A DNA stretch of 59,379 nucleotides from a candidate division WOR-3 bacterium (GCA_026418155.1 JAOABV010000005.1:1-59379), one strand, 5' to 3'; positions 2,253-16,410 are shown, counted from the stretch's first letter. Notes: generated from the sequence alone by a model not told the origin. Made by a program: numbers and translations.

Positions 2253-3290
2253 ATGAATAAAATGTTTAATCTTATCTATAATTTGCCTGACCAGATTAAA
2301 GATGCTTACAATATCGCGCAAAGGTATAAATTCAGTTCTAAACTTTTATTTCAGCCAGCTAATATCGTTATTACTGGTATGGGTGGTTCAGGAATTGGTG
2401 GCGAAATTATCCGTAGTCTATTTTGGACAACTTTGGATATTCCCATTATTATCTCTAAAGATTATACTTTACCAGGATGCGCCAATAAACAGAGTTTGGT
2501 CTTTGCAGTGAGTTATTCGGGTAATACTGAGGAAACGCTTGAAAGTTTTAATCTTGCCCGTAAACGCCGTTGTCCGATAGTTGCGATTACCAGTGGAGGG
2601 AAATTATTAGAGTTATGTAAGAAATATCAAATAGATTGTATTCAAATTCCATCAGGTCTACCCCCGCGTTCAGCAATTGGATATTTATTTATTCCTCAGT
2701 TAATTACTTTGGAGAAAATCGGAATAATCAAAAAAACGACTCAAACGATTAATGAAACGATTAATACTCTTATAACTAATCGGCAAAAATATAATATTCA
2801 GGCCCGAAAATTGGCTCGTGAATTGTTAAATAGCCTTCCGATTATCTATACCACCAGCCATCTTTTTAATCCGGTTGGTCTTCGCTGGCAGGCACAGTTT
2901 AACGAAAATGGCAAAACTTTTTGTCATTGGAATGTATTTCCGGAATTAGACCATAATGAGATTGTGGCTTTAGCCGATTCTACCAGTCTTACACAACCTT
3001 ATTATTTTCTAATCCTAATTGACTCCAATACCCATCGCCGCAATTTGCTTCGAGTTGATTTAACTTTGAAAATTATAAAATCTAAGGTAAAAAATATAAA
3101 AATAAAATCTAAGGTAAAAAATATAAAATTCAAAAAGTTTTATGCTGATGGCAAAGCAGATTTAACTCGCATCTTCTCGTTAATAATGCAAGGCGATTTA
3201 ATCAGTTTTTATTTGGCATATCTGCAAAACATTGACCCAATGCCCGTTTTGGCTATTGATGAACTGAAAAAAATGCTGGCAAGGCGCTAA
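2253..3290 (+). CDS. Bifunctional phosphoglucose/phosphomannose isomerase family (SIS domain)
   Basis: SIS motifs GMGGSGIGG and SYSGNTEET. C-terminal RWQAQFNENGK...PELDHNE pattern typical of PGI/PMI. Confidence 0.8.
   Translation: MNKMFNLIYNLPDQIKDAYNIAQRYKFSSKLLFQPANIVITGMGGSGIGGEIIRSLFWTTLDIPIIISKDYTLPGCANKQSLVFAVSYSGNTEETLESFNLARKRRCPIVAITSGGKLLELCKKYQIDCIQIPSGLPPRSAIGYLFIPQLITLEKIGIIKKTTQTINETINTLITNRQKYNIQARKLARELLNSLPIIYTTSHLFNPVGLRWQAQFNENGKTFCHWNVFPELDHNEIVALADSTSLTQPYYFLILIDSNTHRRNLLRVDLTLKIIKSKVKNIKIKSKVKNIKFKKFYADGKADLTRIFSLIMQGDLISFYLAYLQNIDPMPVLAIDELKKMLARR
3076..3129 (+). repeat. Perfect in-frame 27-nt tandem duplication inside the PGI/PMI CDS
   Basis: ataaaatctaaggtaaaaaatataaaa occurs twice back to back, giving IKSKVKNIK-IKSKVKNIK in the protein. 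Confidence 0.9.
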
Positions 3291-3300
3291 GGCGCTAAAG

Positions 3301-3596
3301 ATGATAAGAGAAATTCAGAAGCAAAATTTAATTTACGCAGAGCAGTCTACAGTTAGTATCGGCAAAAAATAAGTTATGCTAATAGTGAATAATATCTTTG
3401 GAAAAGATAATATAGGTGTTTTCGATAATAAAGCAGAAAAGAACAGTGATGTTCAAAGTTATTATATTCTTTGAAAAAGGTAATATTTATGGTTTTACTA
3501 ATAAAGTAGGCAAGGAGCCGTTATGTTCAAGGTTGTTATATTCTTTGAAAAAGGTAATATTTATGGTTTTACTAATAAAGTAGGCAAGGAGCCGTT
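3301..3596 (+). repeat. Four tandem 73-75-bp copies of the 5' end of the downstream nucleotidyltransferase gene, more decayed with distance
   Basis: ATGs at 3301, 3376, 3449 and 3523 precede the true ATG at 3597. The two proximal copies are near-identical and include AAGGAG plus ATG. Peptides MFKV(V/I)IFFEKGN resemble the true MLKVIIPAAGEG. Confidence 0.85.
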
Positions 3597-4571
3597 ATGT
3601 TAAAAGTAATTATCCCTGCTGCTGGCGAAGGCAGACGCTTAAAACCGCATACCCAGACTACCCCAAAAGTTTTACTCAAAGTCGCTGGTAAACCAATTTT
3701 AGGTCATATTCTGGACCGAATAATTTCAATAAATCCTGACGAGATAATTGTTATTGTCGGCAGTCAAGGAAAACAGATTCAAGATTTTCTAACCAAAAAC
3801 TATCCGCAAAAATTCCAATTTGTCGAACAACAAAACCCAATGGGATTAGGTGACGCTATCTATCGTGTTAGCGACTATCTTCAGTCAGAACCGGTGTTGA
3901 TTCTTTTAGGTGATACCATTCTTGATTTAGATTTCTCGGCTTTTATTGGCAAGGAAAATTTAGTTGGCATCAAACCAGTTTCCACTCCTCAACGCTTTGG
4001 TATCGTGGAGACGCGTAGCGGATATGTCACCCGAATTACGGAAAAACCGCTTGAGCCCAAAAGTAATCTGGCTTTAGTCGGAATCTACTATTTTACAAAT
4101 GCCCAACCGCTTTTCGATAATCTCAGAAAAATTGTCCAAGAAGGCAGAAAGACTCGCGGGGAATATCAATTGTCTGATGCTCTGCAAGAAATGATTGAGC
4201 AGGGTATCAAAATCAAAACTTTTCCTGTAGAATATTGGCTGGATTGCGGAACGCCCGAAGCACTAATCACAACTAACCGTTATCTGCTTCAATCCAACCA
4301 CTATTTTACACCCAGAGAAAAAGTAGTAATTATTCCGCCAGTTTATATTGATGACTCGGCAATCATTGAAGAATCCGTTATCGGTCCGTTTGTTTCCATT
4401 TCAGAACAAGTTGAGATTCGAAATTCAATTATCCGGGACTCAATTATTAATCAGGATTCATATGTGGAAAATTGTTTACTTGAAGGCTCAATCTTAAGCG
4501 AAAATGCAGTCGTCCGAGAACGAGCCCGAAAACTTAACTTAGGCGCTTTTTCGGAAATGGAATTGGGATAA
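3597..4571 (+). CDS. Sugar-phosphate nucleotidyltransferase (NTP-transferase domain plus C-terminal hexapeptide-like region)
   Basis: N-terminal IIPAAGEGRRLKP nucleotide-binding loop and an LGD motif. The C-terminal I/V-rich region is periodic. AAGGAG lies 6 nt upstream of the ATG. Confidence 0.8.
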   Translation: MLKVIIPAAGEGRRLKPHTQTTPKVLLKVAGKPILGHILDRIISINPDEIIVIVGSQGKQIQDFLTKNYPQKFQFVEQQNPMGLGDAIYRVSDYLQSEPVLILLGDTILDLDFSAFIGKENLVGIKPVSTPQRFGIVETRSGYVTRITEKPLEPKSNLALVGIYYFTNAQPLFDNLRKIVQEGRKTRGEYQLSDALQEMIEQGIKIKTFPVEYWLDCGTPEALITTNRYLLQSNHYFTPREKVVIIPPVYIDDSAIIEESVIGPFVSISEQVEIRNSIIRDSIINQDSYVENCLLEGSILSENAVVRERARKLNLGAFSEMELG

Positions 4572-4655
4572 TTTTATTTTACCACAAAGTCCCAAAGGAA
4601 AATAAAGCATTCGCTCACCGCACTTCTTTATTTATGATAATTAGAAAGGATTCCT

Positions 4656-5960
<1,305 letters not shown>

Positions 5961-16077: not shown

Positions 16078-16410
16078 ATTAGTGCTATCTGAATGAAATT
16101 TTATATTTAAGATTTTTGTAGTATAGTTTTACTTATCTAAAAATACTATCCCAATGTTAAAGGAAAGTAAGGTATAGTGCTATTTGAGTTGAAATTTTAT
16201 ATTTAGGATTTTCGTCGTATAGTTCTATCTATCTCTATCTAAAAATAATAGACCAATCTTTAAGGAAAGTAATATTTAGTATTATTAAAGTTAAAATTTT
16301 ATATTTATGATCTTTGTAGTGTAGATTTACTTATCTAAAAATAATAGATTAATCTTAAAGGGAAGCATTATTTAGTACTATTTTGAGTTAAATTTTGGAG
16401 TTGTGAGATA
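16078..16410 (+). repeat. About 3.5 degenerate ~95-100-bp tandem repeats just downstream of the purL stop
   Basis: Units start near 16078, 16173, 16275 and 16371. All share ...agtgctat(c/t)tga...gaaattttatattta(a/g)gat...ctaaaaata.... The unit junction resembles the purL stop region (aagcattgattagtaattag). Confidence 0.8.

Follow-up and report, generated by a model that had tools for sequence, protein, structure and literature searches.

Tandem duplications are reported to be mostly neutral, with purifying selection depleting them from coding regions (PMC13167724). The microhomology-mediated or slipped-strand tandem duplications (MTDs) described by Wei et al. (PNAS 2026, PMC13167724; bioRxiv 10.64898/2026.02.28.708716), which expand into tandem repeats, are among the closest counterparts of the repeat array reported here. 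The array shares with them a head-to-tail arrangement, confinement to one locus, a unit of tens of bases and absence from relatives, as well as a genome-wide depletion from coding sequence in which the intragenic survivors stay in frame, and a first duplication followed by expansion to a multi-copy array. It differs from the MTDs in that any microhomology at the founding junction has become unrecoverable through decay of the oldest copies and in that the density of arrays in the genus, ~10 times that of family relatives, is unexplained by the general model alone. Tandem repeats of variable copy number have also been described genome-wide in Ehrlichia ruminantium (Collins et al. 2005; Frutos et al. 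2006, summarised in PMC10710844), and the summary depicts them as actively expanding and contracting. As portrayed there, that species resembles the present one in having a small genome with many locus-specific, non-coding tandem repeats that lengthen spacers. E. ruminantium is, however, an intracellular pathogen with a reported coding fraction of ~64%, whereas the organism studied here is a free-living uncultured WOR-3 bacterium in which ~82% of the genome is coding (long ORFs).

Bacterial upstream ORFs and leader peptides provide another comparison. Like them, the locus contains a short ORF that has its own Shine-Dalgarno site and a stop codon overlapping the start region of the gene. Unlike upstream ORFs and attenuation leaders, it has a leader that is not conserved and that lacks alternative RNA structure, a terminator and regulatory codon logic, and its ORF is a by-product of duplicated sequence.

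The window analyzed in this study is a 59,379-nt stretch of a candidate division WOR-3 genome (GCA_026418155.1, JAOABV010000005.1:1–59379), and all positions are counted from its first base. An original prediction, made from the sequence alone, had noted a graded series of four copies of a gene start upstream of a sugar nucleotidyltransferase gene. We characterized this series by unit alignment, by comparison with related genomes and by a genome-wide survey of tandem arrays. At a probability of roughly 80%, we consider the array to be a near-neutral, minisatellite-like local tandem duplication, tolerated as a by-product of a genus-wide tendency toward short tandem duplications, and not a control device.

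Organization of the locus

The array lies between an isomerase-like gene and the nucleotidyltransferase gene (Table 1). The isomerase-like protein matched the Pfam families bact-PGI_C (5e-41) and SIS (2e-08), and the nucleotidyltransferase matched NTP_transferase (8e-33) together with LbH/hexapeptide families. Orthologues of the nucleotidyltransferase were found in 41 of 41 relatives. Its N-terminus, MLKVIIPAAGEGRRL, is kept in relatives, among which the conserved start is MLKVIIPAAGEG or MFKVIIP; since the start is conserved, position 3597 is the true start of the gene. The spacer between the two genes measures 306 nt in this genome (G000).

Table 1. Features of the isomerase–nucleotidyltransferase locus, with positions in the window
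Feature	Position	Strand	Basis or remark
SIS-type bifunctional phosphoglucose/phosphomannose isomerase-like gene, 345 aa	2253–3290	+	ORF; stop TAA 3288–3290
S0, residual first spacer, includes ATG 3301	3291–3375	+	No demonstrable copy of the unit
U1, old decayed copy: 17 nt of gene start plus ~56 nt of leader	3376–3448	+	
U2, young copy of the unit	3449–3522	+	TRF; 72/74 to U3
U3, young copy, functional leader of the real gene	3523–3596	+	TRF, unit alignment
Decoy mini-ORF, 26 aa, MFKVVIFFEKGNIYGFTNKVGKEPLC	3523–3603	+	ORF list; strong Shine-Dalgarno site
The gene's own first 17 nt, final partial (0.2) array copy	3597–3613	+	TRF end, alignment
Sugar-phosphate nucleotidyltransferase gene, 324 aa, C-terminal left-handed beta-helix domain	3597–4571	+	

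Structure of the repeat unit

TRF detected an array at 3449–3613 with a period of 74, 2.2 copies, 93% matches and a score of 302. The region was divided into units by the phase of its ATGs, and the similarity of each pair was judged against shuffled sequences. U2 and U3 were identical at 72 of 74 bases, in agreement with the prediction that the two proximal copies are nearly identical. U1 was 69% identical to U2 (z 7.2 against shuffles) and 67% identical to U3 (z 6.3), which marks it as a genuine copy that has decayed; its spacer part by itself matched at 39 of 57 positions (z 6.7). The units stand head to tail at a period of 73–74 nt with nothing between them, as three full units and a 17-nt partial one, and the layout of the region is S0-(G'S)x3-gene. 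In the last copy, Shine-Dalgarno site, start codon and gene are all preserved. The copies upstream of it are redundant; one is decayed and two are young.

The units had been taken for copies of the gene start, which applies to a minor part of each. The gene-derived portion comprises the first 17 nt (5–6 codons) only, on which the TRF end at 3613 and the alignment agree, and the other 57 nt of the unit are leader, which includes the Shine-Dalgarno site and ends in GGCAAGGAGCCGTT. Because 57 of the 74 nt are leader, most of each "peptide" is translated spacer. A gene-derived peptide was accordingly rejected, the similarity between unit and gene ending after 17 nt.

The start codons at 3376, 3449, 3523 and 3597 follow from the period of the array. 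The predicted spacing series also included ATG 3301 as the head of a fourth upstream copy, and this part did not hold: three decoy units are present. The segment 3301–3375 resembled every unit as shuffled sequence does (z 0.8–1.2, p 0.14–0.24), and spacer parts alone gave p values of 0.16–0.29 against dinucleotide shuffles. Any tandem array running into the gene has to open with a spacer part, and just 10 nt separate the upstream stop (3288–3290) from ATG 3301, so that a complete fourth unit cannot fit. The fourth copy was thus rejected by both shuffle statistics and array topology. The concern that the distal units might be no closer to the gene start than shuffled AT-rich sequence applies to 3301–3375 and not to U1, which stands above shuffles (z 6–7). 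By a rough estimate, an ATG would fall within 1 nt of phase by chance in ~5% of cases at the local composition, and ATG 3301 is best read as a coincidence. The 3' part of S0 (3312–3375) has only a weak resemblance to the 50-nt spacer found in a relative in the same genus (G001; 39/65, z 2.1, p 0.02).

In blastn searches of the 1.74-Mb assembly with U1, U3 and S0, the unit was found nowhere else; the matches elsewhere were chance words of 12–20 nt only (12–17 nt for U3). Having no other genomic copies, the unit is not a dispersed element, and a dispersed intergenic repeat of the REP/MITE-like kind was rejected. Duplication of an integration (att) site was also rejected, as the units in G000 abut with no insert.

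Decoy reading frames

The AAGGAG at 3512–3517 serves ATG 3523 and that at 3586–3591 serves the real ATG 3597, each lying 5 nt before its start codon. An AAGGAG had been expected ahead of both proximal decoy ATGs, but ATG 3449 is preceded only by the Shine-Dalgarno site of U1, decayed to GAAAAGAA. The ORF that opens at ATG 3449 is 44 aa long, ending at TAG 3581–3583, and not 26 aa as in the proximal decoy. The stop of the latter, TAA 3601–3603, falls within codons 2–3 of the real gene (ATGTTAA), precisely as predicted. The 26-aa peptide had no Pfam match, and the mini-ORF was absent from all relatives examined. Judging from the sequence, decoy ATG 3523 is probably translated into a 26-aa peptide without a function of its own. 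The position of the decoy stop over the true start would probably allow re-initiation, keeping the cost low. For annotation, the repeated mini-ORFs should not be recorded as genes, and ATG 3301, the first in phase, should be taken as a coincidence.

The locus in related genomes and the ages of the copies

Throughout the family and order, the isomerase and nucleotidyltransferase genes stay paired and are separated by a short spacer. The spacer is 50 nt in G001, where TRF found no long-period repeat and one weak 12-nt two-copy repeat, ~36 nt in G006, ~15–25 nt in G003, G004 and G005, and ~60–80 nt in G009 and G011. Given that the spacers of G001, G003, G004, G005, G006 and G011 measure ~15–80 nt and that G001 has no long-period repeat, the array is young and not conserved, and from the spacers compared we regard it as specific to this species. 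No second assembly of the species was found by exact-protein look-up, and a metagenome scan gave only the G002 species.

G002, the third species of the genus, has a spacer of 506 nt. The Shine-Dalgarno region and start of the G002 gene are matched within this spacer by 'TTTTGATAAAAGATAA...ATGTTAAAAGTAATTATT', located 83 nt beyond the isomerase stop, with a local score of 36 (shuffles 18.8 ± 2.6, maximum 32). This relic of a Shine-Dalgarno site and start codon lies 422 nt upstream of the real start, and the ~400 nt of filler that follow it contained no tRNA, Rfam match, integrase-sized ORF or G000 copy. A weak similarity links the relic's tail to that of U1 and to that of U2 (p ~0.03 in each case, with z ≤ 0 for control segments), and a junction motif, ATTAT-T-CTTT...AAAAA, is common to the relic and the units and missing from the real genes. 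The first decoy ATG after the upstream stop is at 83 nt in G002 and at 85 nt in G000. Taken together, these sequences suggest one founding duplication in the ancestor of the genus, which G001 would later have lost. The relic implies either that the boundary was hit twice or that it was hit once in a common ancestor; two independent hits would be somewhat unexpected, ~2% of starts carrying arrays. Related genomes had been named as a place to look for different copy numbers at this locus; G001 and the others lack the repeat, and G002 retains a decayed relic of the start.

U2 and U3 differ by 2.7% (JC 0.03), and U1 differs from them by 31–33% (JC 0.39–0.44; U1/U2, 31%, JC 0.39). At the gene's four-fold degenerate sites, G000 differs from G001 by 57% (JC 1.06) and from G002 by 53% (JC 0.93), and the three nucleotidyltransferase proteins of the genus are 87–90% identical to one another. 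On this scale, the duplications would date to roughly 40% and roughly 3% of the species divergence. The two age classes of units require two or more duplications that were widely separated in time. The predicted age gradient is thus real in that the copies differ in age and arose in more than one event. A process specific to the boundary, which the gradient had been thought to imply, is not needed, because an existing repeat is itself a substrate for further slippage and because arrays over starts are matched by arrays over stops, as shown below.

Tandem arrays across the genome

TRF was applied to the whole 1.74-Mb assembly at periods of ≥30, and the arrays were compared with long-ORF gene calls and with random placement. 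Among the 114 distinct arrays, 10 were intragenic (74.5 expected), and the periods of all 10 were multiples of 3. Purely intergenic arrays numbered 55 (10.4 expected), arrays over a start 20 (10.3 expected), arrays over a stop 22 (9.9 expected) and arrays over both 7 (8.9 expected). Starts equal stops, and only frame-breaking positions are empty, which fits a position-blind duplication process filtered by selection.

Where arrays over gene starts had ≥3 units, the proximal pair was the closer match in 5 arrays and the poorer match in 4, and a general proximal-youngest rule was rejected; stop arrays with ≥3 units likewise showed no such trend. Regional clustering was also rejected, as it was not significant (P 0.09 and 0.25). 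In the window's first 5 kb, start arrays occur at three genes out of four in a row. The overhangs of other young arrays ranged from 0 to 47 nt. Contig ends were touched by 12 of the 114 arrays, and the present contig begins within an array at ptsI.

Array density among genera and repair genes

Array density was 6.5 per 100 kb in this genome (whole assembly), 6.8 in G001 (220 kb) and 3.2 in G002 (341 kb), three species of one genus. Within the same family, it was 0.4 in G003 (260 kb), 0 in G004 (140 kb, GC 34%) and 0 in G006 (116 kb), and in G014, of the same order, it was 0.8 (260 kb, with long in-frame protein repeats). High array density is a genus trait that base composition does not explain. 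The difference between 3–7 arrays per 100 kb in the genus and ~0–0.4 in sister genera of similar GC merits a comparative study of replication and repair genes, and this genus-wide excess is a more interesting question than this array by itself.

Genes for the Pol I 5' nuclease, RecJ, MutS, MutL, a UvrD/AddA-type helicase and RNase HII were present in 10 of 10 genomes, and Ku was absent from all 10. The ExoVII large subunit and RNase_T/DnaQ-type exonucleases were absent across the family and order, except for xseA in G014. Loss of a repair gene was rejected as the cause, since none of the nine functions checked tracks the genus-specific trait. An apparent UvrD-family helicase pseudogene in G000 and G001 was also dismissed, its in-frame TAA being the stop of a preceding addB-like gene in the same frame.

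We tentatively raise the possibility that the genus is a natural "tandem duplicator", in which 30–250-bp tandem duplications would arise or be retained approximately ten times more often owing to a heritable change in replication or repair; with the same reserve, we place the change outside the nine functions checked. If so, loci with copies at ~3%, ~40% and perhaps ≥100% of the species divergence would form a dated record of duplication, and the genus would have a steady source of new Shine-Dalgarno/ATG mini-ORFs and N-terminal variants.

Origin of the array and alternative explanations

In the reading that we favor, a 74-nt segment that began in the isomerase/nucleotidyltransferase spacer and extended 17 nt into the nucleotidyltransferase gene was duplicated in tandem, the copies probably arising by replication slippage or microhomology-mediated duplication. 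For the later expansion, the repeat itself probably served as template. On either side of the young U2/U3 event lie 17-nt gene-start arms that match at 15 of 17 positions, enclose the 57-nt leader and are products of the older duplication. The genus makes or keeps such duplications ~10 times more often than its family relatives, and the locus is one of the ~114 arrays in this genome. One gene is left complete by a duplication across a start, while the same event within a gene would break the frame, and this is why the array persists. Its effect on translation is most likely incidental at most, although the decoy Shine-Dalgarno site and ATG may exert a modest regulatory effect on the real gene.

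A selected device for translational control is an improbable alternative. The mini-ORFs would then be upstream ORFs: by capturing ribosomes they would tune the nucleotidyltransferase relative to the isomerase, ribosomes being delivered to or withheld from the true start via the ATGTTAA stop/start overlap. Such a role would suit the strong AAGGAG that lies 5 nt ahead of the decoy start at 3523, and likewise the overlap of the decoy stop with the real start, although an out-of-frame stop within the first few codons is common at 35% GC. Within the same 5 kb, similar decoy arrays also stand upstream of ptsI and of tgt, but genome-wide, arrays are as frequent at stops as at starts. Conservation is lacking, with a plain short spacer in G001 and five other relatives, and U1 has lost its Shine-Dalgarno site and decays at a rate comparable to that of four-fold sites. 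We found no sigma-70-like promoter or intrinsic-terminator-like site in 3291–3596 and no antiterminator; at E ≤ 1, no Rfam family matched the array (one chance miRNA match fell elsewhere in the locus), and the fold of 350 nt of RNA was no better than that of shuffles (z +0.5). A structured RNA, riboswitch or attenuator was rejected on these results. In a regulatory leader, the leader ORF and RNA structure would be conserved, and they were not in the relatives examined.

We judge it quite improbable that a mutational process repeatedly creates duplications exactly at translation starts, for example through breaks or stalled forks at sites of transcription or translation initiation. The two or more rounds at this start, the G002 relic at the same start and the run of start arrays among the four genes at the beginning of the window speak for targeting. 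Against it, a repeat, once present, drives its own further expansion, arrays are not significantly clustered, and there is no proximal-youngest trend. Starts and stops each at ~2 times the random expectation (20 and 22) and intergenic arrays at 5 times expectation, with all intragenic ones in frame, are the signature of a selection filter and not of targeting. It is very improbable indeed that the array or its copy number is an artefact of a short-read metagenome bin: the contact of arrays with contig ends, including the ptsI array in which this contig starts, does indicate assembler trouble with repeats, which might have led to a miscount of near-identical units, but the units differ (two substitutions between U2 and U3, 31% between U1 and U2), assemblers do not invent diverged copies, and sister genomes, assembled independently, have similar arrays at other loci.

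As a tolerated duplication before a housekeeping sugar-activation gene, the array alone is ordinary. It serves as a worked example of how spacers in this lineage grow from ~50 to ~300 nt, of the birth and decay of decoy translation starts, and of why such duplications seem to "sit on" gene starts.

Two smaller duplications were observed within 600 nt of the array. The SIS gene contains a perfect in-frame 27-nt x2 duplication at 3075–3128, which gives the isomerase nine extra residues that G001 does not have, and an 8-nt x2.2 duplication runs across the isomerase stop codon at 3281–3298. Both are of tolerated kinds.

Other tandem duplications in the window

The arrays over the starts of ptsI and tgt are of the same kind as the 74-nt array preceding the sugar nucleotidyltransferase gene, and the tgt-start array is absent from both same-genus genomes compared (G001 and G002). 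Two shorter duplications lie inside and across the end of the upstream SIS isomerase gene. The longer one has added to the isomerase nine residues (KIKSKVKNI-type) that the G001 orthologue does not have. The shorter one spans the stop codon and thereby places a second copy of the stop after the first.

Tandem duplications and arrays in the window
Feature	Position	Unit and copies	Remark
Array over ptsI start	1-323	60 nt x5.4	contig begins inside array
Duplication in SIS isomerase gene	3075-3128	27 nt x2	perfect, in-frame
Duplication across isomerase stop	3281-3298	8 nt (AAGGCGCT) x2.2	
Array over tgt start	4651-4910	98 nt x2.7	
Intergenic array	16096-16396	96 nt x3.1	77% matches

Exonuclease content and the helicase genes

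Certain single-strand exonucleases stabilise tandem repeats in E. coli. Searches of the whole genomes of ten WOR-3 bacteria (G000–G014) detected no DEDDh exonuclease of the RNase_T/DnaQ type (PF00929) in any of them and no ExoVII large subunit (PF02601) in nine, and RecJ was the sole detectable member of this E. coli set. Because the pattern is order-wide, it does not account for the genus-specific excess of arrays.

An apparent stop inside a helicase gene in G000 and G001 proved to be the single stop codon separating addB-like and addA-like genes that share one reading frame (C92:2970-8168 in G000; the same arrangement in G001). In G002, the two genes overlap in different frames.

Start-site relic in G002

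The G002 locus (L003, 1078-1500) holds a relic, now decayed, of the Shine-Dalgarno site and start of the nucleotidyltransferase gene, and approximately 400 nt of filler come after it. Searches of this filler returned no tRNA, no Rfam match and no copy in G000. It contains a GC-richer stretch at about 1390-1430 with a T-run at its end, and a sequence identical to the relic and filler region is carried by the metagenome contig FMJZ01018079.1 (L021).
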